From: an uncultured virus (IMG/VR IMGVR_UViG_3300021387_000812)
Taxonomy: Duplodnaviria > Heunggongvirae > Uroviricota > Caudoviricetes
Direction: 5' to 3' (one strand)
Virus record (IMG/VR): IMGVR_UViG_3300021387_000812
Length of the DNA stretch: 64,000 nt
Part shown: positions 10,891-26,264 of the stretch, in pieces
Numbering within the stretch: position 1 is the first letter of the stretch
Layout: each line of letters opens with the position of its first letter
The notes under the pieces: generated by a model
What the model was told of the DNA's origin: nothing
Databases searched by the model: none
Seen by the model: only the letters and a program-made list of their open reading frames with translations
Position numbers and translations under genes: made by a program

Positions 10891-11481
10891 ATGGGAAACA
10901 GAGCTTTAATCCAGCCGAAAGGAAAAAATGTTTGTGTTTATCTGCATTGGAACGGTGGAGCGGATTCTGTTGTTCCTTTTCTCAAATATTGCGAGCTTCG
11001 AGGCTTTCGTCCGTTTGAAGATTCTTATGGCCTAGCAAGATTTGTTCAGATTGTTTCTAATTTCTTCGGAGGCAGTTTATCTATTGGTGTTGAAGATCAT
11101 GCTCCGACAGAAGAAGACATAGACTGGATAGATAATGGCCTGTATATTGTAAAAGGCTGGAAGATTGTTGGCCGAAAAGTTTATGAAGGTTATGAAGATG
11201 AAAAAGTAAGCGATTTAAAAGATTTTCTCAAGGAGATTGACAAGTGTCAGCCAGAGAATGATCGGCTTGGAGATCTGTACTTCAACAGCAAACCTGTTAA
11301 AGTAAAAGATATGATAGCAAATAAAATATATCTCATCCGGAAAATGGAAGGACAGCCCTTTGAAAAAGTAATATGCGTAAAGCAAAACGAAGAAAAGGGT
11401 TATATATCACAATTTAATTCATTTGTTCCGTTTGGCAAAAACGATGAAATTAGAGAAATTATATCGTATATCACAATTTAA
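10891..11481 (+). CDS. Conserved phage hypothetical protein
   Basis: MGNRA.I...VYLHWNGG N-terminus. Confidence 0.75.
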   Translation: MGNRALIQPKGKNVCVYLHWNGGADSVVPFLKYCELRGFRPFEDSYGLARFVQIVSNFFGGSLSIGVEDHAPTEEDIDWIDNGLYIVKGWKIVGRKVYEGYEDEKVSDLKDFLKEIDKCQPENDRLGDLYFNSKPVKVKDMIANKIYLIRKMEGQPFEKVICVKQNEEKGYISQFNSFVPFGKNDEIREIISYITI

Positions 11482-11525
11482 TTCATTTGTTCCGTTTGAC
11501 AAAAATGATGAAATTAGGGAAATTA
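11403..11525 (+). repeat. 59-bp tandem duplication
   Basis: 11403-11461 vs 11467-11525, three mismatches. Confidence 0.85.
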
Positions 11526-11582
11526 CATTGCGGTCTTTTGATTTTTAATCAATAAAAAATATCGATTAAATGGAGAGATAGT

Positions 11583-12368
11583 ATGGCTAAGAATGAAATT
11601 AAAACAGCAGAACTGACTGAAGCAGAACTGAAACAGGCTGAAAATAAGAAAGCTGAACCTACTCGTATTAAGATTAAGCGTTTTCCTGTATCTAAGGCAC
11701 GTATTAAGATCGTTGGTGACAGCCCGCTGCTTGTGCATGCATGGTCCGAGAAGGCCAAGAAGCAAATGCTTGAAGCTCAGCAGGATACTGATCCTACCAA
11801 AGGCAAGCGCGGCAAGAAGAAGCAGCATGATGTCCGCGAACCCTTTGCTGACTTTGTGAACGCGGCTTACTGGATTTCTGAGAAGCCTGAAGTTGACGGG
11901 CTGCCAGATGCTGAACAGAAACAGTTGTTCGAAGAAGCCTGGCAGAAGGGCGCTCAGTTCGGATTCCCGGTCATTGCTTTTAAGAAGGCTGCGGTGACTG
12001 CCGTGTGGTCTGCCGGTCTGATTACTTCTCAGCCGTTTATGAAGCGCCTGTTCCATGTTCATGCAGTGAATGGAGCTCACGTTGGCTCCGGCCAGGAGTT
12101 GGCTGTGATTAAGACTGACACTCCGCCGGAACTGTGCGAAGACATGGTGAAGGTTGGTCCGTCCAAGGTCGCTGATCTTCGTTATCGGCCGGCATTCCGT
12201 GACTGGTCTACTGAACTGGAAATCGAACTCATTGAGACCGGAACGTTCACAATGGAAGATATCATCTCTGCCTTCGACATGGGCGGATTTATGAACGGTG
12301 TCGGCGAATGGCGAATCGAGAAGGATGGAGAGTTTGGTTGCTTCCATGTTGAGATTATGGAGGAGTGA
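11583..12368 (+). CDS. Cas7/RAMP-like RNA-binding protein
   Basis: RAMP-like motifs IKIVGDSPLLVH, FGFPVIAFKKA and C-terminal Gly-rich loop GVGEWR...GEFG.FHV; periodic repeat array lies downstream. Confidence 0.65.
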   Translation: MAKNEIKTAELTEAELKQAENKKAEPTRIKIKRFPVSKARIKIVGDSPLLVHAWSEKAKKQMLEAQQDTDPTKGKRGKKKQHDVREPFADFVNAAYWISEKPEVDGLPDAEQKQLFEEAWQKGAQFGFPVIAFKKAAVTAVWSAGLITSQPFMKRLFHVHAVNGAHVGSGQELAVIKTDTPPELCEDMVKVGPSKVADLRYRPAFRDWSTELEIELIETGTFTMEDIISAFDMGGFMNGVGEWRIEKDGEFGCFHVEIMEE

Positions 12369-12370
12369 AA

Positions 12371-12511
12371 ATGATAACAATCGAGATTTATTGGGACGAC
12401 TTAACTGAACGAGCTCAGAATGAAATTCTTAAAAAATTAAACATCACAAATAAAGAACATAATTGGGATGTTTTCCCAATTGCCACAGTGGATATTGAGA
12501 GAGAAGAATAA
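12371..12511 (+). CDS. 46-aa hypothetical protein
   Basis: GGAGGAG RBS; TAATG overlap with next gene; below the ORF-track cutoff. Confidence 0.6.
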   Translation: MITIEIYWDDLTERAQNEILKKLNITNKEHNWDVFPIATVDIEREE

Positions 12512-12990
12512 TGGCATACAGCTATTCTTATGGCAGTGTAGCTAGTTTGTTTAAGAATCCGGCTGAAGTAGCTGGTGTGGTCTGTCAGAAGCTTGCAGAC
12601 AGCGAAACTGGATTGACTCCTAAAGCGTTAGTAGATGCCAGCCGGGATGTAAACGCACCGCTGCATAATGAGTTTGAGTGGGATGATACAATCGCGGCTG
12701 AGAAGTATCGGGAAGAACAGGCCAGATGCATTATCCGTCACCTGATTATCATTCGAACTGACATTCAAGAGATCCGCAAAAACAAAGACCGATCCTTTGT
12801 TAGCACAGGAGAGAACGACAAGGCTTACGTGCCGCTGGACAAAGCGTTATCCAACGAAGTGTGGAAGAACAATCTTCTTAAAGCGGCTAAAGCCGATATG
12901 AAAACGTTTATTTATAAGTACAACCGACTCGCAGAACTGACTGGTGTCATCGATAAGATGAAGGGATTCCTGGACGAAGAAGCGTCCTAA
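12511..12990 (+). CDS. Putative partner protein of the Cas7-like gene
   Basis: LTP..LVD.SR...APLH.EFEWDD..AAEKYR..QAR motif; sits between the RAMP-like gene and the array. Confidence 0.7.
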   Translation: MAYSYSYGSVASLFKNPAEVAGVVCQKLADSETGLTPKALVDASRDVNAPLHNEFEWDDTIAAEKYREEQARCIIRHLIIIRTDIQEIRKNKDRSFVSTGENDKAYVPLDKALSNEVWKNNLLKAAKADMKTFIYKYNRLAELTGVIDKMKGFLDEEAS

Positions 12991-13033
12991 TACTTCTCGA
13001 CATAGGTGTGAAGCCTGAACGTGGTGGGGTCCC

Positions 13034-13342
13034 GGCAGCCGAGGTGAGTTGAGCAGAGTTGATGTTTGTACTGGAGGGTTGGGCAGTCGTGGAAGTGCGG
13101 GATACGGCACGACATGGAACGGTTTGCAGGGGCAGCCGAGGATTGTCTACGACTGGTCAGGTGCGTAACGGTGTGTAGCGGCAGCCAAGGTAGTGTACGT
13201 CACGTTTGTGCAAGGTAACTTTTGGCAGTCATGGTTCGTAATCGTAGTGTAGGACGCGGTGCGTACCGGCAGCCATGGTGAGCAGTGCTAAGTTGAGCTG
13301 TGTACTGGATCGTTGCGTATCAAGTGAGTTTACGGTCTCACT
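13034..13342 (+). repeat. Six-unit repeat array with 5-nt internal periodicity; putative guide-RNA array
   Basis: GGCAGYCRWGG at 13034, 13082, 13131, 13180, 13224, 13268; periods 48/49/49/44/44; closed by AGTGAG/CTCACT hairpin. Confidence 0.8.
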
Positions 13343-13365
13343 CTAATCAAAACTGTGTTTTATAT

Positions 13366-13438
13366 TGGCGTGTGGCGAAGCGGTTAACGCAGCCGGCTTT
13401 GACCCGGTCATTCGCTCGTTCGATCCGAGCCACGCCAG
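13366..13438 (+). tRNA. tRNA-Gln(TTG)
   Basis: Cloverleaf; acceptor TGGCGTG/CACGCCA, anticodon loop CTTTGAC, T-loop TTCGATC. Confidence 0.92.
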
Positions 13439-13709
13439 TTTAACCGGGTGGTTTCCAGCTCCAAGGTTACGTAAAAATCTTCTGACCCTACCGCCGTCTG
13501 TCTAACCAACAGACATAAGTCGAATAGCTAAAGAAGAGAGTAAGACGGTTTGTAGGAGCACCTGCATCGTGAACACAGATCAGAACAAACAATTTAATAA
13601 TCGCACAGGCGGCAAAGAGCTGCTTTAAAGACCCTTACTTTGACTCTGTTCTGAAAAAAGTTCTTAATGCCGGGCTTGTCTCCCTAGACGCGATGCATAA
13701 TTTCATACT

Positions 13710-13812
13710 TCGGTTGCGGCTGCCACATAATAATAAACAAGTCAGGTATACTTGTTGCTCAGCGATTCATCCAGAGACTGCGAAGCTCTCGTTGAGTAAT
13801 AGCCGCAACCGA
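13710..13812 (+). ncRNA. Putative structured RNA
   Basis: 12-bp closing stem TCGGTTGCGGCT/AGCCGCAACCGA enclosing two hairpins, between the tRNAs. Confidence 0.4.
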
Positions 13813-13819
13813 TTCTTCT

Positions 13820-13891
13820 GCCGGATTGGCGCAATGGAAGCGCAGTTGATTTGTAATCATCAGGTTGCAGGTTCGAGTCCTGTATCCGGCT
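13820..13891 (+). tRNA. tRNA-Thr(TGT)
   Basis: Acceptor GCCGGAT/ATCCGGC, anticodon loop TTTGTAA, GGTTCGAGTCC. Confidence 0.9.
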
Positions 13892-14048
13892 CTTACAAAA
13901 CTAAATATAAGGAGCAAAGATATGAAACTGTATGGAGCTGAGATCTCTCAGCAATACATCCAGTACAACGACAAAAAGAAGAGACATATCCGTTACCCGA
14001 ACTCGACGTCTTACCCCAGAGAAGCCGCAGAACAGGAGAGATGGAGCA

Positions 14049-18468: not shown

Positions 18469-19083
18469 ATGGTTCAGATTACTCTCGTCTCTAATGACCC
18501 CCGCGTGAAGGACATCGTGTCCGAAGCTACCACCGTCCGTGAAATCCTGGAGAAGCATGACAAGAATTATGCGGTTGCCCAGGTTGCAATCGACAGTGTG
18601 CCGCTGCAGCTGGGCCAGATGGATATGCCCATCGGTGAGCTGATTGGCGGTGCGGAACGCTGCATCATTTCCTGCATGGCGAACAAGGATAACGGCGCCC
18701 AGGCGGTGATTGTCGGTTCTTCCTGCGTGGTAAAGTCCACTCTGACTCCGGATGAGATCAAGAAGATGAAGAAGCTGCATCCCGAAGCGCTGACGATGGT
18801 GGATGAAGACGGCGAGCCCGTGTTCGCAATCGATATCGATGAGCGGACTCCCGGCAGCATCAACTCTTTCGGCGCCTGCTTCGGCAATGCCACCAGCTCC
18901 GATGGTAAGGCGACGATCACCGTGCTTCTGGAGCCCACGACGGAGAACCCGGATGATTTGGTCTACGATAAGCTCGGCAAGGCTCTGTCCAATCTGGACG
19001 AGATGGAGAACGAGCTGCGCGAGATGCTGCCCGAACTGCACGAAGAAGAGCGTCGAGTTCGTGCGATGATTACCAGGATGTAA
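18469..19083 (+). CDS. Ubiquitin-like domain fused to a C-terminal domain
   Basis: About 74-aa beta-grasp-like N-terminus (TTVREIL..IDSVPL) ending ..KDNG; upstream of E2/JAB/E1-like genes. Confidence 0.6.
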   Translation: MVQITLVSNDPRVKDIVSEATTVREILEKHDKNYAVAQVAIDSVPLQLGQMDMPIGELIGGAERCIISCMANKDNGAQAVIVGSSCVVKSTLTPDEIKKMKKLHPEALTMVDEDGEPVFAIDIDERTPGSINSFGACFGNATSSDGKATITVLLEPTTENPDDLVYDKLGKALSNLDEMENELREMLPELHEEERRVRAMITRM

Positions 19084-19090
19084 CACCTTC

Positions 19091-19123
19091 CGACAGGGAG
19101 GGGTCATCCCTCCCTGTCGATTT
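19091..19123 (+). terminator. Intercistronic hairpin / weak terminator
   Basis: CGACAGGGAGGG/CCCTCCCTGTCG 12-bp stem. Confidence 0.65.
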
Positions 19124-19134
19124 AAGGAGGTAAT

Positions 19135-20499
19135 ATGTTTAGAGATTCTGTCACCCTTGAATCGTTCTGTTCAACAGAACTGGCAAGGAACCTGTATGAT
19201 GACACATTTAATAAAAGCGACAGCGTGTATACTCTGACCGCAATGGCATTGCTTTACCGGCGGTTCAGCAATTTCAAACTGTCATATGGTGATAACCCTG
19301 AAATCATTAACACTGACCCGAAAACATTCTCTCTGTATTTCCTGACAAAGTTTAGCATGGATGAGAGAGATGAATACTTTGAAAACCACGGTCTTGCCGA
19401 CAAAATAAAAGCGCTTGACAGGCACAGCCAGTTTTTATCCAACACTATGCACAGCACTGTCAAGATTTATACCATCCCGGATACAAATACAGTGCTGGTT
19501 TATCGTGCCGGTGGGCTTTCAACACCTTATCGCCGGCTGGTAATCAGCTTGATCCACAGCATGTTTGAGTCCATCGCGAAGGCCGAGCCGCTGTCGCAGG
19601 ATGAGATCGAGTTCATGCGCACACTCACGGTCAACGATAAGTCCGCATTCATCGAGCGGATGACCCGCATCGCGAACCGACCCGACTTCAAAGATTTCAA
19701 GCTGCGGTTCACGCTCGCCGGATTCGAGCGGAAGATCTATGAAAAGAAGATCAAGGCCGCTGAAGCCGCAATTAAGAACGCGAAGATTAAAATGGATGAA
19801 GCTCTGGAAGAATATAGGCGGATGAACAACGAGCGCATGGACGCGATGCTCACGCTGGTCGGGCTCCAAGAGAGACACGATAGCATACAAGAAGTGACCG
19901 AAGTCCAGCAGTACATCGCCAGCAACAAACTGCTCAGTGATATTGAGATCGACGACCGCAAGGTTCACTTCAATGTCAAAACCTTCTTGGCGCCATATAA
20001 CTTTGATGAATGGGATACATCGGTCCGCCGCAGTGATACGCTGTTTACTTATCATGTCGGCCGTGGACCCGTCAAAACAATCGATGACGCGAAACTCCTG
20101 CTGTCTGCAATCTTCTCGGAGAACCACTGCCTTAAGGTGAAGATGTGTGCGCACTTTGATATGGACTTCTTTGGTGCGGCTGTTGAAACAGTTGCCGCCT
20201 ATCCGTTTAATAAAATGCCAGGATATGAAGTCTACATTCCGAATCCGCATCTCCAGTATTACAGATGTTTCGGAGAGAACCAGCTGGATATCCTGAATGC
20301 CCTGGGTGAAACCGATATGATCAGCGCGATTGAAGCCTGCATCAATGTTGCCCGGCGAATCTGTATCTTCGATCCCAGCTACAGACATTTTGTTTACGAT
20401 CTGTATGGAAATGAAAACAAATGCATCGTCGCAGAAGATGGAACTGAAATGACGGTTGCAGAAGCTCTGACCTACCTGAAGGAGAAGAAGAATGGCTGA
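19135..20499 (+). CDS. Coiled-coil protein with putative E2-like C-terminal domain
   Basis: PNPHLQYYRCFG resembles the E2 (H)PH....C.G active-site pattern; operon context. Confidence 0.5.
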   Translation: MFRDSVTLESFCSTELARNLYDDTFNKSDSVYTLTAMALLYRRFSNFKLSYGDNPEIINTDPKTFSLYFLTKFSMDERDEYFENHGLADKIKALDRHSQFLSNTMHSTVKIYTIPDTNTVLVYRAGGLSTPYRRLVISLIHSMFESIAKAEPLSQDEIEFMRTLTVNDKSAFIERMTRIANRPDFKDFKLRFTLAGFERKIYEKKIKAAEAAIKNAKIKMDEALEEYRRMNNERMDAMLTLVGLQERHDSIQEVTEVQQYIASNKLLSDIEIDDRKVHFNVKTFLAPYNFDEWDTSVRRSDTLFTYHVGRGPVKTIDDAKLLLSAIFSENHCLKVKMCAHFDMDFFGAAVETVAAYPFNKMPGYEVYIPNPHLQYYRCFGENQLDILNALGETDMISAIEACINVARRICIFDPSYRHFVYDLYGNENKCIVAEDGTEMTVAEALTYLKEKKNG

Positions 20500-21091
20500 A
20501 ATGACTGAAAAGGACGTGAAGAACATCATAGACTGGTGGGCCAGCCGCAAAAAAGCAGATAAACCTGTAAAGATCTATTACACAGCGGATGCCTACATTA
20601 AAACCAACGCTCTGGTCCAGTATCACAATGAAGAAGTGGGCTGGAACATGATCATCAAACCATATAAGGATGGCTATCAGGTTTCAGATATCCTTGTGTA
20701 TCCGCAGAAGGTAAGCCCGGCGTATATATCAGTCGACACAGCGAAGTATGGAATGTGGAAAGCTGAATTAACAGATGAGCAGGACGCGAATCTCTTTGGT
20801 CACGGTCATTCGCATGTGAACATGTCGACCGGAGCCAGCGCTGTGGATGTACGTCAGCAGTACGAAGAGATCGCACTGAAGCACGGCGGGTTCTGGCTGT
20901 TCCAGATTTGGAATAAGCAGGGGAGTATAAACTCCTTCTTTTATGACCTGGAGAATGATCTGGTATATGAAGATGACTTTGTTGAAGTGTGCGTAGAAGT
21001 AAACGGAGAAGACCTGATGGAGTTTGCGCAGGATTCGTTTAATAAACTGGATTACGATATGAGCGATGTACAGACTGGAGTGATTGAATGA
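20492..21091 (+). CDS. JAB/JAMM metallopeptidase
   Basis: EVGW and HSHVNMSTGASAVD (HxH-x7-S-x2-D). Confidence 0.85.
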   Translation: MAEMTEKDVKNIIDWWASRKKADKPVKIYYTADAYIKTNALVQYHNEEVGWNMIIKPYKDGYQVSDILVYPQKVSPAYISVDTAKYGMWKAELTDEQDANLFGHGHSHVNMSTGASAVDVRQQYEEIALKHGGFWLFQIWNKQGSINSFFYDLENDLVYEDDFVEVCVEVNGEDLMEFAQDSFNKLDYDMSDVQTGVIE

Positions 21092-21762
21092 ATCTGTCAA
21101 AATCTTTCGAGTTTTTTGACCCGGAAATGTGCAAAGGCCGGGTGCATATCATCGGCTGCGGCTCGGTGGGTTCCACCGTAGCGGAGCTGCTTGCGAGATT
21201 CGGTATCAAGAAGTTTGCGCTTTACGATTTCGACGTTGTAGAGTCGCATAACCTGGTTAACCAGATGTTCACTCAAATGGATATCGGCCGGCCGAAGGTA
21301 GAAGCTGTGCGGGATATGATCCAGGCGATCAACCCCGAAGCCAACATCAAACTCTATCCTGAAGGCTGGAAGGATCAGGAGCTGGATGGCTATGTCTTCC
21401 TGGGCGTGGATAACATCGAACTCCGCCGCAAGATCGCTACAAAGAACCGCTTCAACGATGCGGTCAAAGCAATGTTCGATTTCCGAACCGGCCTGACCGA
21501 TGCCCAGCATTACGCTACGGACTGGAAAGATGTCAAATCCAAAGCCAACTTCATCAACACTATGAATTTCAGTCACGAAGATGCGATGGTGACCACCAGG
21601 ATGTCCGCCTGCAACGTATCTCTTTGTGTAGCGCCGACGGTGCGGCTGGTAGCGAACGTTGGAGTCACAAACTTTATCAATTTCCTGAAGGGAGAACACC
21701 TGTACAAGCAGATCTCTATGGATGCGTTCAATTTTGAGAAGGGAATCGACGCCATAGGATAA
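21088..21762 (+). CDS. ThiF/E1-like adenylyltransferase
   Basis: IIGCGSVGS, DFDVVESHNLVNQ, G.PKVEA; candidate catalytic Cys in SACN. Confidence 0.9.
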   Translation: MNLSKSFEFFDPEMCKGRVHIIGCGSVGSTVAELLARFGIKKFALYDFDVVESHNLVNQMFTQMDIGRPKVEAVRDMIQAINPEANIKLYPEGWKDQELDGYVFLGVDNIELRRKIATKNRFNDAVKAMFDFRTGLTDAQHYATDWKDVKSKANFINTMNFSHEDAMVTTRMSACNVSLCVAPTVRLVANVGVTNFINFLKGEHLYKQISMDAFNFEKGIDAIG

Positions 21763-21871
21763 TCCAATTGCAATGTATAAGAACTTGTGTTCACTACCGA
21801 TGTAATCGATAGATACTTTCCGAAAAGATAAGACAATTAGAACTTAAAACTTTGTTTTAGATTGCAATGGA
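21763..21871 (+). ncRNA. Retron-like ncRNA A (short)
   Basis: Closing arms TCCA(A)TTGCAAT/ATTGCAATGGA, unpaired G21775, two 5' hairpins, 3' hairpin plus AG. Confidence 0.6.
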
Positions 21872-21880
21872 GAATAAATA

Positions 21881-23023
21881 ATGATATATGTAACAACACG
21901 CAGGTTCAAAAAGAAGAAGAAGATTAACTGGCTGGACCTGATCTCCGAACCAGAACCGCCAGTGAACGAGCTGGCAAGTGATGGTTCAGCGGCAACTATC
22001 ACCCGCCGCTACGAAGAAGTGCCGGCTGAGCTGTTGGATAAAATCGATGTCCCGAAGATGATCAGCATTCTCAAGAATTACAATCAGCGGCATCAGAATC
22101 TCCACGACCGTGACAAGCGTTCCATGTATAAACATTACAGCATCCCGAAGAAGAGCGGCACAGGTCTCCGCCCGATCGACGAGCCCTGCGATGAGCTTCA
22201 GGATGCGCTGCTGGAGCTTAAGAATATCCTGGCAGATAAGTTCGGAGTGCTCCATCACACCAGCGGCTTCGCTTATGTGACTGATCGCTGCACGCTTGAT
22301 GCGGTAAAGAAGCATCAGGCGGGCGAGTGCAACTGGTTTTATCACACCGACGCGTCCGGATTCTTTCCGTCTACCACACTCAAGTTCACGATGAAAATGG
22401 TGAAGATGATCTTCCCACTGAGTGAAATCTGTAAGAGCGATGAAGGCTACAACGAGCTAAAGAAGGCGCTGAGCCTGGGCTTCCTGAACGGTGGCCTGCC
22501 GCAGGGCACAAAATTATCGCCTTACTTAACCAATGTGATTATGATCCCGATTGACTTCAAACTGTTTAACGATCTGGCACACAGAAGGTTTATTTATACA
22601 CGTTATGCAGATGATATGCATATTTCATGCAAACAATACTTCAAAGAAGAACGCATGACTGCTTATATTCAGAACGTCTTTAAGCAGTTCGACGCGCCCT
22701 GGGAACTCAAGCAGGAGAAGACGCACTACGGTTCCCGCAAAGGCAAAAACTATATCCTGGGCGTCTGCCTGAATGCGGATAACAATATCACTGTGGGCTG
22801 GCGCAACAAGAAGCTTTTTAAAGCAAAGACAACAAATCTGATTATGGACTTCCGTAACGGAAATCCCTGGTCCAGAGAAGATCTCATGGAGTACGCCGGA
22901 CTTCTGTCGTACTATAAGATGGTCGAAAAAGAATACTTCGAGAAGAATATTATCCAGCACTTTAACAATAAGTTTAAAGTAGATCTGGAATGGTTGGTAA
23001 AACGTCTCCTTAGTCGCAAATAA
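21881..23023 (+). CDS. Retron-type reverse transcriptase
   Basis: IPKKSG..RPI, DAVKKH (NAxxH-like region X), D..GFFPS, LPQG..LSP, YTRYADD, ILG (VTG-like region Y); no maturase or HNH domain. Confidence 0.88.
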   Translation: MIYVTTRRFKKKKKINWLDLISEPEPPVNELASDGSAATITRRYEEVPAELLDKIDVPKMISILKNYNQRHQNLHDRDKRSMYKHYSIPKKSGTGLRPIDEPCDELQDALLELKNILADKFGVLHHTSGFAYVTDRCTLDAVKKHQAGECNWFYHTDASGFFPSTTLKFTMKMVKMIFPLSEICKSDEGYNELKKALSLGFLNGGLPQGTKLSPYLTNVIMIPIDFKLFNDLAHRRFIYTRYADDMHISCKQYFKEERMTAYIQNVFKQFDAPWELKQEKTHYGSRKGKNYILGVCLNADNNITVGWRNKKLFKAKTTNLIMDFRNGNPWSREDLMEYAGLLSYYKMVEKEYFEKNIIQHFNNKFKVDLEWLVKRLLSRK

Positions 23024-23429: not shown

Positions 23430-26264
23430 ATGGCTGGCAAATCGTATTTAAAGAATCAAATCAAACTGGTGTCTTTAAACGCGAACGATATGTTCACGCA
23501 GGATGAGTTCGATAAATATATGGAGCTCATCGGTTTTGTTAACGAGATCGACCGACTGAGCGGCGATAAAAGCCAGGATGCCGCGCTGAAAAAGGCGGAG
23601 CTGGTAGCCGCAAAAAAGAACTGCAGTAAAGAACTCAGTGCGATGATCAAATCGCACAAAGGCGTACCCAGGAAAGTACGCCTGCCGTCGGTGGTGTATC
23701 ACTCAAAGGATGAAGAGATGCCGCCGGGTGTAACATGGCGCAATCTTAAGCGCTCCAAGAAGATCGCAGAGTTTGAGTCGGATATGTCACGCGCCATGGG
23801 CGTGCAGACGAACAAACACACTTTCGATAAGATCATTATCAAGTGGAAAAATCTGGATCTGCTGGAGCAGCTCGTGCTGGATGGGTTCACGATGGACCTG
23901 CTGGTGGACGGGCAGATTGTGCAGAAGAAGTACAGATTCTTCTCAGCTTCCGCTGGTCAACTGCGCCGCGATAAGCTCCAGATGGTCTCGGAAGATATCT
24001 GGGAGAAGATCAAAGATCGTATTGAGTGCGGGTTGGGCTGGAAAGTAATCAACGAAAAAGGTGGAGCGAACGTAAACAAAATGCTCGCGTACCTTGCCTT
24101 GTGTGGCTCAGCAACAAACCCTTGGCCGGGATTTGATATCAGACGATGCATCGTGATACCCGACTGGGAAGGGGAAGTAACCGATCGGATGTTGTATATC
24201 AAGCCTGATTATACGACAGAAGACGGTGTCCGCACTGTAAAGATCAACCATGTGGATGGCGCCGGCATGTACCTGACGGACGCGGAGATCGTACCGGAAG
24301 ATCTTCGCGGCAAGAACTTCATGTTTCGTGGACCGTACTTCAAAGGGCTGTTGAGTCCTTTTGATGTAATTGCCTTTTGCAAGAAGCACGGTGTCGAACC
24401 TGAAATCGAAGACATGTGGCACATCAAACACAATCTTGTCAAGGAAAATATCCAGGTTCTCTTCACTAAAAGCCAATTCAAAATGATTGGCTTTTATTCG
24501 TCTTGGGAAGAATACCAGGACACCTTCGAACGCTGCGGCTGTCAGTTTGGTGTAACCCAGTTTGAAGAAGATGAGTTCCCGGATAAGAACTACAATTATC
24601 AGATGGGGCAGACCCTGACCGACTTCACGGATGAAGAGATCAAACAATACATAGCACACACGCATGACAGAATCCTGAATCTTGCAAGCAACAAGAACGA
24701 GATGCTGAATACTTTGAAAGCCAGAGAGAACTCATTTGCGGCTGATAAAGTAGCACTCGCTCTGTATCCTGAGCTTCTTCGTGATGGCTATAACAAGTCT
24801 CAGCTTAAAGACATCAAGAGAAGAATGCTGATGGACGCAAAATCCGGAGCGATCAAGTGCAAAAACAAGCGTCTCTTTGCGTTGCCGGATTGGTATGCTG
24901 CGTGTGAGTATTGGTTCCTTCACGTAGAACGGCCTTGCGGCCTGCTGAAGAACGGTGAAATCGCCTGCCGCCCATACTTGTCTCACGAGAAGGCAGACGT
25001 GCTCCGTTCTCCGCATCTCTATATGGAACATGCACTCCGCAAAATAGTGCATAACCCGGAGATATACAAATGGCTCTGCTCAGATGGTATCTACACATCG
25101 TGTCACGATCTGATCACAAGAATTTTGCAGTTCGATTGTGACGGAGACCAGTTAAATGTGGTCGTAGATCAAACCATATTAACCGTGGCAGAGCGAAACA
25201 TCAAAGAGTTTGATGTAATCCCACTATTTTACGATGCAAATAAAGCGAAGCCGGAGATAATCTCTCAGGCCGCAATGTTCCACGGTCTCAAGCGGGCTCA
25301 TGAGTTCTCCAACATTGGAGAGATCAGCAACATGCTCACCCGTTTGTGGAACAGAGATAATCCAGACAGACTGGCGGCAGCCTTCCTATGCTACAAAAAT
25401 AATTTGATTATTGATGCAGCGAAAACGGGATACATCAACGACTATACCAACTATCCGGATGTGGAGAAGCGGATCAACAAAGCTACAGGCGGACCTAATG
25501 GCCGCATGCCCTTCTTCTTCCAGTTTAGCCGCAACGGACGTAAGGAGATTGCCAACGGCAAAAAGAAGAAGGTCTGGGCAAAGATTAACAACTCCACAAT
25601 GAATAGGATCTGTCAGGCATTTGACGATATCGGCAACATCAACATGAACTTCGCCGGTGTATCGCCATTTAACTGGCAGATGCTGATGAGCGCTCCGTGC
25701 TTTGATAAGCGGCCAGAGATCGTCTCAACCTTCTGTGAGATAGATAATAGCAAACTGTCACTCTCCATCGTGGAATCCGAAGAGAGCCCGACCGAGCGCG
25801 AACTGATGAAGAATAATGGCATTCTCGAAGAAGACATCATCTATACGCTTACGGAGAAGTACGGTAGTCTTGAAATCTGTTATCCGTATATCACAAAATA
25901 TCTGTTCTCAGGCGAAGGCGTGGGAAAAGCAACACATAAGCAAACCTTCTGGCGGGTGTTCGGCGATATCGCGCTGAAGAATCTGCGCGAGAACCTGAAG
26001 AACCATTACATCTGTGATAAGTGCGGCATGAAGATCCCGAACTGGGTGGATCTGGATCAGCACTTCTGCCCGAAGGATACTCAGGGATTCTATCAGTGCA
26101 TCGACTGCGGCAAGCTGTGCGAACGCATGAACTCCCGGCAGTGCAGGTGTATGGAGTGTCAGGTTCAGCACCGCAACGAGAACAAACGCAACAGTCGTCT
26201 CATGAAAAAACAAATCCAAAAGGAGAGTGGTGAAAAACGTACTTCATTCTTGCCATTAGTGTAG
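23430..26264 (+). CDS. YonO-like single-subunit RNA polymerase (double-psi barrel, RdRP-like)
   Basis: SAGQLR, DGAG, R.P.FKG, LRSPHL, catalytic DCDGD, IIDAAKTG; C-terminal Zn fingers. Confidence 0.85.
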   Translation: MAGKSYLKNQIKLVSLNANDMFTQDEFDKYMELIGFVNEIDRLSGDKSQDAALKKAELVAAKKNCSKELSAMIKSHKGVPRKVRLPSVVYHSKDEEMPPGVTWRNLKRSKKIAEFESDMSRAMGVQTNKHTFDKIIIKWKNLDLLEQLVLDGFTMDLLVDGQIVQKKYRFFSASAGQLRRDKLQMVSEDIWEKIKDRIECGLGWKVINEKGGANVNKMLAYLALCGSATNPWPGFDIRRCIVIPDWEGEVTDRMLYIKPDYTTEDGVRTVKINHVDGAGMYLTDAEIVPEDLRGKNFMFRGPYFKGLLSPFDVIAFCKKHGVEPEIEDMWHIKHNLVKENIQVLFTKSQFKMIGFYSSWEEYQDTFERCGCQFGVTQFEEDEFPDKNYNYQMGQTLTDFTDEEIKQYIAHTHDRILNLASNKNEMLNTLKARENSFAADKVALALYPELLRDGYNKSQLKDIKRRMLMDAKSGAIKCKNKRLFALPDWYAACEYWFLHVERPCGLLKNGEIACRPYLSHEKADVLRSPHLYMEHALRKIVHNPEIYKWLCSDGIYTSCHDLITRILQFDCDGDQLNVVVDQTILTVAERNIKEFDVIPLFYDANKAKPEIISQAAMFHGLKRAHEFSNIGEISNMLTRLWNRDNPDRLAAAFLCYKNNLIIDAAKTGYINDYTNYPDVEKRINKATGGPNGRMPFFFQFSRNGRKEIANGKKKKVWAKINNSTMNRICQAFDDIGNINMNFAGVSPFNWQMLMSAPCFDKRPEIVSTFCEIDNSKLSLSIVESEESPTERELMKNNGILEEDIIYTLTEKYGSLEICYPYITKYLFSGEGVGKATHKQTFWRVFGDIALKNLRENLKNHYICDKCGMKIPNWVDLDQHFCPKDTQGFYQCIDCGKLCERMNSRQCRCMECQVQHRNENKRNSRLMKKQIQKESGEKRTSFLPLV

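Follow-up and report, generated by a model that had tools for sequence, protein, structure and literature searches.

A probable staggered-array VIPR system in a large phage, with guides predicted to target temperate phages of Clostridia

An uncultured large phage (IMG/VR record IMGVR_UViG_3300021387_000812) most likely encodes a VIPR system of the staggered-array kind that silences the prophages of its host, a reading to which we assign a probability of about 0.88. The 64,000-nt stretch of this record that was analyzed here (the window) belongs to a large phage, as indicated by Pfam matches of its long ORFs to an RNA polymerase-like gene, DNA polymerase III alpha, primase-helicase, NrdD and a tyrosine integrase, and the related records span 95–151 kb. 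VIPR was first described in 2026, and the main texts of the preprints define it as vipr, vap and GGY/NN vrRNAs that are decoded with a 1-nt skip, distinguish seven types, and report tests almost wholly on type II, with Escherichia phage SUSP1 and a Pseudomonas fulva prophage as examples (10.64898/2026.04.26.720920, 10.64898/2026.04.26.720927, 10.64898/2026.10.15.759431). Staggered vrRNA arrays with a 1-nt overlap (legend of Fig. S18) and NNNGG, YNNNG and NNNNG repeats (Methods) are presented in 10.64898/2026.04.26.720920, and non-canonical triplets in 10.64898/2026.10.21.760802. The system, the staggered layout and the loose triplets are hence already in print, and the locus belongs to the VIPR family and does not represent a new system. 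It comprises the following features, all on the plus strand.

11583..12368, +, vipr, 261-aa RAMP/RRM protein assigned to the Vipr family (match to PDB 36PP, phrog_4652, model compared with Csm3/Cas7)
12371..12511, +, 46-aa acidic ORF between vipr and vap, possibly outside the system (no Pfam family)
12511..12990, +, vap-like accessory gene, 159 aa, phrog_15946 (weakly winged-helix-like N-terminal part and C-terminal helical hairpin)
12991..13033, +, array leader (similar motif in close relatives; fold no better than shuffles, z 0.70)
13034..13081, +, unit 1: GGCA junction, 8 pentamers and one block 1 nt short; predicted target, SSB acidic tail
13082..13130, +, unit 2: 9 pentamers; tentative target, mazF/PemK, antisense
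13131..13179, +, unit 3: 9 pentamers; target, gamma-glutamylcyclotransferase (GGCT, also GGACT) gene of temperate phages, sense, wobble skipped
13180..13223, +, unit 4: 8 pentamers; matches at control level
13224..13267, +, unit 5: 8 pentamers; target, SNF2 helicase motif, antisense, wobble skipped
13268..13321, +, unit 6: 9–10 pentamers; predicted target, D-stem/anticodon arm of tRNA-Val(CAC)
13323..13342, +, 3' hairpin at the array end (not significant alone; motif recurs in relatives)
13365..13439, +, tRNA-Gln(TTG), neighbor of the array (tRNA search)

The protein-coding part of the locus consists of vipr, the 46-aa ORF and vap only, on a phage and with no CRISPR array alongside. An earlier, sequence-only reading had taken the RAMP gene for the direct neighbor of the array; this has to be corrected, given that the 46-aa ORF and the conserved 159-aa gene, which was missing from that account, stand in between. 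In agreement with the same reading, none of the cas1/2/3/5/6 families was detected by Pfam among the 13 long ORFs of the window, and the array is followed by tRNA-Gln(TTG), which may supply the 3' end of the array transcript. An Rfam search over 11300–14000 found only two tRNAs and no hammerhead, a promoter and terminator scan of the locus stayed at chance level, and the locus showed no sign of a processing enzyme, a ribozyme or a tail on each guide. Two RNA runs (X1 and X2; contigs only, without a silent control stretch) contain a 208-nt contig in vap and a 185-nt contig in vipr, with no differences, and none on the array; these contigs are not counted as expression. Just 5' of vipr, over the 3' end of the ORF at 10891–11481, there is a 62-nt tandem duplication (11403–11528; 94% identical, period 64) that is absent from every fetched locus.

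Elsewhere in the window, a gene run at 18469–23023 includes a ThiF/E1-like gene (21088–21762) and a reverse transcriptase (21881–23023), both present in six related large-phage records; the product of 18469–19083 appears ubiquitin-like by eye, yet has no Pfam match. The reverse transcriptase was considered as a required VIPR partner and rejected, being present in the six large-phage records but in none of 24 smaller VIPR records. The 944-aa protein encoded at 23430–26264 has a Pfam RdRP match and is, we presume, probably a YonO-type phage RNA polymerase.

The 261-aa protein is, judging by sequence comparison and modeling, a member of the published Vipr family with a RAMP fold that includes the thumb and the G-loop. 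It matches SUSP1 Vipr (PDB 36PP) with E = 8.7e-8 by phmmer on PDB sequences and E = 2.5e-7 with a profile, and phrog_4652 is common to both proteins, so that the resemblance to VIPR systems suspected from the sequence alone now rests on homology. The RAMP/RRM fold that had been guessed is likewise supported by an AlphaFold model (pLDDT 81.6), which is Csm3/Cas7-like by Foldseek (E 5.8e-5) and by structural alignment (Z 9.2, rmsd 5.3, 154 aligned). Pfam has no family for either vipr or vap. In the phmmer alignment, H52, R202, E242, W243 and R244 correspond to SUSP1 H17, R138, D177, W178 and R179, although the H52 stretch alone is not significant; the SUSP1 residues are reported to hold G1, G2 and Y3 (10.64898/2026.04.26.720927). 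N238 replaces C173 of the SUSP1 Y3 pocket and is invariant in 55 relatives, a substitution that may explain why A is tolerated at triplet position 3. Altogether, 1120 Vipr homologs were retrieved; full-length ones with 28–34% identity are found in Gordonia and Mycobacterium phages (H1–H32), which would be easy laboratory models.

The vap family is present in 88 of the 90 vipr loci (among 132 distinct ones) that continue for 1300 nt or more downstream, as detected with an HMM made from 73 proteins of those same loci. The best structural matches of the vap model (pLDDT 93.9) are weak, comprising winged-helix chains (Z 4.7–5.3) and also helical ones; Foldseek returned nothing at E ≤ 0.001, and an Atlas search only unnamed viral clusters. 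Neither sequence nor profile comparison linked vap to SUSP1 Vap1 (phrog_5926), and the two proteins may both be winged-helix-like.

The six units of the array start with GGCAGYCRWGG at 13034, 13082, 13131, 13180, 13224 and 13268 (periods 48, 49, 49, 44 and 44), the sole plus-strand matches in the window; repeats, periods and pentamer parse all stand as first read. The lag-5 peak predicted from that parse is present: against 1000 shuffles, 13034–13321 peaks at lags 5, 10 and 15 with z 3.3, 6.0 and 4.1 (4.5, 4.9 and 4.2 for G-G). G comes first in 44 of the 52 full pentamers, which together with the 4-nt block GTTG makes up the 45 of 53 blocks counted by hand before; it occupies position 1 or 2 in 51 and position 3 in none. 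Strict GGY is found in only 11, in keeping with the earlier impression that the array is looser than the described GGY/NN. The scaffold is a series of degenerate G-N-H/NN pentamers, a consensus related to GGY/NN. Across 93 distinct units, with the first pentamers excluded, G accounts for 87% of position 1 and 1% of position 3, whereas position 2 is G in 47% or T in 39%; the NN frequencies track codon positions 1–2 of sense genes (r 0.68). The last block of unit 1 (13078–13081) is 1 nt short, giving the period of 48, and is probably a deletion that cuts this guide to eight pairs.

Periodic arrays recur at homologous loci, as had been anticipated. In 18 close loci, 96 of the 111 unit lengths equal 5n-1 (4 mod 5), and in a second clade, that of smaller VIPR phages, 153 of 186 units have a period of 4 mod 5; adjacent guides thus appear to overlap by 1 nt, as in staggered arrays. 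With a loose tract pattern, pentamer tracts joined by 4-nt (or 4 + 5n) gaps are seen in 85 of the 88 vap-bearing loci (85/90 overall), whereas SUSP1 has neither the vap family nor such tracts. The claim that a hairpin closes the array holds in part: taken alone, 13323–13342 folds no better than shuffles (z -0.99), but the same motif closes the arrays of three relatives (L001, L049 and L128).

In this clade, the NN pairs specify DNA targets by a 1-nt skip, a conclusion supported by computation; the gapped targets in other phages that the sequence-only reading had proposed were found, and the gap is 1 nt. For the guide tests, the 15 of 111 units that are not 4 mod 5 were excluded, except unit 1 of the window, which was put in by hand, and a locus with an identical array (L062) was left out of the guide counts. 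In the first 1.0 Mb of loci, perfect matches appeared with skip 1 (two guides on an SNF2 gene, wobble skipped) and none with skip 0 or 2. In 3.15 Mb of prophage DNA, 23 of 100 clade guides pass a strict threshold with skip 1, compared with 0 (skip 0), 1 (skip 2), 1 (skip 3), 2 (reversed) and 2 (complemented) for the same guides. When positions 3-4, 2-3 or 1-2 are taken as NN, 2, 4 and 9 of 95 guides pass, the last value probably due to low complexity. The computation fixes the register of the guide such that the GGCA junction stays unpaired; the AG of GGCAG shows no enrichment beside the targets (1.2 and 1.5 of 23 weighted guides), and mismatches are most frequent at the last NN (10% vs 3–4%). 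The remaining 77 guides, including unit 4, have no strict target in the 3.15-Mb set, and four of the 23 that pass have only scattered best matches, so that not every single case is convincing.

The targets converge. Guides of different phages fall on conserved motifs of amidoligase, GGCT, MetK, SNF2, terminase, ParB-methylase, SSB and DUF2800 genes, on either strand and mostly at codon positions 1–2. The 3.15-Mb set was collected via the amidoligase and GGCT proteins of one temperate phage record, G036, and the counts for these two genes are partly circular because G036 itself was found by unit 3; the SNF2, MetK, terminase, methylase, SSB and DUF2800 matches are free of that circularity. The second clade of smaller VIPR phages, searched on the same prophage set at a looser threshold, yields 37 of 130 guides with matches against 14, 6 and 6 in controls; against the large-phage clade, its guides gave 2 matches vs 3, 2 and 5 in controls. 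No tblastn match to the eight targeted families was found in the window, in the six related large-phage records (G002–G007) or in the G001 pieces. Inside vipr or vap genes (L077, L061 and L111), unit 5 and guides of relatives gave near matches that were not counted, being off the wobble phase with 14–16 of 16–18. A guide of the large-phage clade matches, at 18/18, an SNF2 gene in two phages that have their own staggered VIPR array (L083 at 2788, L085 at 2165). In loci L304–L505, most convergent guides appear to lie on one physical strand of the prophage, though the genes are on both, the SSB-tail and DUF2800 guides being exceptions.

Three window guides, units 3, 5 and 1, appear to aim at one family of Clostridia temperate phages, the assignment of unit 1 being a prediction. 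The sole exact match of unit 3 in IMG/VR (18/18) is in the GGCT gene (PF06094) of G036, among 19 distinct sites at 17/18 or better. Although chance might explain this single match, the same 27.6-kb record is also hit by the guides of other phages, at 20/20 and 16/16 in its amidoligase gene and at 16/18 in the same GGCT gene, in each case with the skip on codon position 3. Unit 5 matches 16/16 in 12 of 201 genomes (the family of G088), with 63 matches at one mismatch or fewer vs 6 in the control. Its target is the GAALLMEM-GTGK motif of a prophage SNF2 helicase, antisense and with the wobble skipped: of the 10 perfect loci that were retrieved, nine encode GAALLMEM-G, five of them in intact SNF2-like ORFs (PF00176 in L544) and four in ORFs that break off past the motif. 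In L564, L565, L567 and L568, near 1501, SNF2-type ORFs end right past this target. Unit 1 matches 15/16 in L486 and L478 at DDDEDFL just 5' of the stop codon of a prophage Enc34-type SSB (PF10991); the SSB tail accounts for 7 of 18 distinct matches at 14/16 or better, and the guide of a relative matches it 16/16 as far as the stop codon. The assignment is weaker because the guide is of low complexity. No target was found for unit 4 (14 matches at one mismatch or fewer in 201 genomes vs 17 in the control). The best amidoligase loci belong to Pullichristensenella, Limiplasma, Christensenellales, Oscillospiraceae and other Clostridia, and we infer a Clostridia host solely from where the targets lie. 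PMC11318856, citing another paper, states that amidoligase genes are linked to superinfection exclusion. The targets look picked for conservation rather than for that role because many guides also match replication and packaging genes.

For units 2 and 6, the matching sites cannot clearly be called prophage genes. In 301 genomes of the order, unit 6 matches in four (control 1), all in 3' duplicates of tRNA-Val(CAC). These observations raise the possibility that the filament formed on the att core in tRNA-Val(CAC) acts as a roadblock to excision or integration rather than silencing a gene, a reading that deserves attention even if we lean against it. The duplicates in G133 and G259 are identical to the 3' part of the intact tRNA-Val(CAC) of the same genome, DUF2800, tail, lysis or recombinase genes flank the sites in G263 and G133, and the NN core of unit 6 is shared by 7 of 18 close arrays with altered triplets. 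However, no att copy was found in viral contigs (no match at 18 nt; nine at 16 nt, all unrelated) or in the target-family records (0/40 at 3 mismatches in 20), no integrase using the site was found, and the recombinase beside the G133 tRNA is of the serine type.

Alternatively, the same system might act partly against the host chromosome, with unit 2 silencing a mazF toxin gene (anti-defense) and unit 6 the tRNA-Val(CAC) gene; we regard this as rather unlikely. Unit 2 is perhaps, on sequence matches, directed antisense at mazF/PemK: it scores 17/18 in 3 of 201 family genomes, all in mazF (control 0), and 16/18 in two more. These best sites lie between dinB-like and YitT-like genes (labels by eye) with no evident prophage, and prophage-borne PemK copies score only 13–15/18. 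Against this, no perfect mazF match exists in the 201 + 301 + 13 genomes searched, and unit 2 has no site in the 301 order genomes (control 2) or in 13 genus genomes. Intact tRNA-Val(CAC) genes match the unit 6 core at 14–15/16 and the guide of L001 at 13–14/14, but for the whole of unit 6 att-like fragments, themselves selected with this guide, score higher (18/20) than intact tRNAs (14–15/20). Silencing of this tRNA is further disfavored by codon usage, given that the phage does not avoid GTG (32% of Val codons in the window and 14% in relatives, parallel to GCG and ACG).

The view that target RNA or DNA is cut or destroyed by the complex, the 159-aa protein serving as nuclease, as proposed for VIPR types III–V, appears very unlikely. 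Vap has conserved H52, E56, W57, R67, Q70 and R94 and no assigned family, and the fold of Vipr is closest to Csm3, which cuts RNA; but the guides match both coding and template strands and therefore point to DNA, and the vap model gives weak winged-helix-like and helical matches only. That the array is decayed or silent and its matches are chance hits on common peptide motifs is highly improbable, despite the short block of unit 1 and 37 exact viral matches of unit 2 to an unrelated motif (VSGTTIT[FL]G, all in long repeat proteins and rejected as chance), which show that chance matches at the motif level exist, since skip-1 matches far exceed the controls, guides of several phages converge on G036, and vipr and vap are intact.

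For the preferred reading, prophage silencing by a staggered-array VIPR system, the parts of the locus, their linkage, the register, the skip rule and the target family are established by sequence or computation, and the filament, the triplex, silencing and the requirement for vap are carried over by analogy from the SUSP1 work. The array would be transcribed and either cut at the GGCA junctions or loaded in phase-shifted blocks, yielding six guides of 8–10 pentamers. Vipr protomers would coat each guide, one per pentamer, hiding the G-N-H triplet and presenting the NN pairs, which would read double-stranded DNA as two bases followed by one skipped, as shown in print for SUSP1 and computationally here. 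By analogy with SUSP1, the filament, together with the DNA-binding-like accessory protein, may block transcription of the target, which would be a conserved motif of one of the eight gene families listed above, read at codon positions 1–2 in Clostridia temperate phages. Since the targets lie in one family of temperate phages, we propose that the large phage suppresses the resident prophages of its host during infection.

The system resembles type II, as typified by SUSP1, in its Vipr family protein, two-gene core, pentamer guides, 1-nt skip and wobble skipping, as well as in targeting both strands and competing mobile elements with no self-target found. It differs from type II in that the guides abut via the 4-nt GGCA junction in units of 44–49 nt and lack per-guide tails, whereas the SUSP1 tracts (L162) are separated by 68–73 nt or more, lack a 4-nt junction and belong to separate vrRNAs of about 100 nt, each with a conserved 3' tail. 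Further differences are the G-N-H triplet in place of GGY, the accessory protein (phrog_15946 as opposed to phrog_5926), the length of Vipr (261 aa vs 195) and the targets of the window clade, which comprise a tRNA arm and, in full prophages, genes of replication, packaging and cargo. The 1-nt overlap, resulting in a period of 5n-1, and the degenerate pentamer are shared with the published staggered VIPR arrays. The text of 10.64898/2026.04.26.720920 does not tie these arrays to a type, and its target searches are confined to types II, III and V; tables S1–S3 or data S1–S4 of that preprint may already include the present clade with its type. The RRM/RAMP fold with thumb and G-loop is held in common with Cas7/Csm3 of class 1 CRISPR, but there is no repeat-spacer array, and a 5:3 gapped code replaces contiguous pairing, consistent with the lack of skip-0 guides noted above.

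The novelty here lies in the decoding of the targets and in two unusual guides, units 2 and 6. A word search of the main texts of two VIPR preprints found no mention of tRNA, toxin, Clostridia or amidoligase, and tRNA/att and mazF would be target classes not found by that search. It is tentatively conceivable, though we would not favor it, that a guide of the unit 6 type blocks recombination at the tRNA-Val(CAC) att core, that unit 2 silences mazF, and that GGCA together with the loose G-N-H triplets suffices for packing guides without tails or a processing enzyme; if so, VIPR would be an RNA-guided tool of anti-recombination and anti-defense. Under the preferred reading of prophage silencing, the computation extends the 1-nt skip code to tail-less staggered arrays with a far looser scaffold and provides concrete targets in an anaerobic Clostridia system, in which the guides in effect read conserved amino acid motifs of a prophage family. 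Such a compact multi-guide array may also be useful for engineering.
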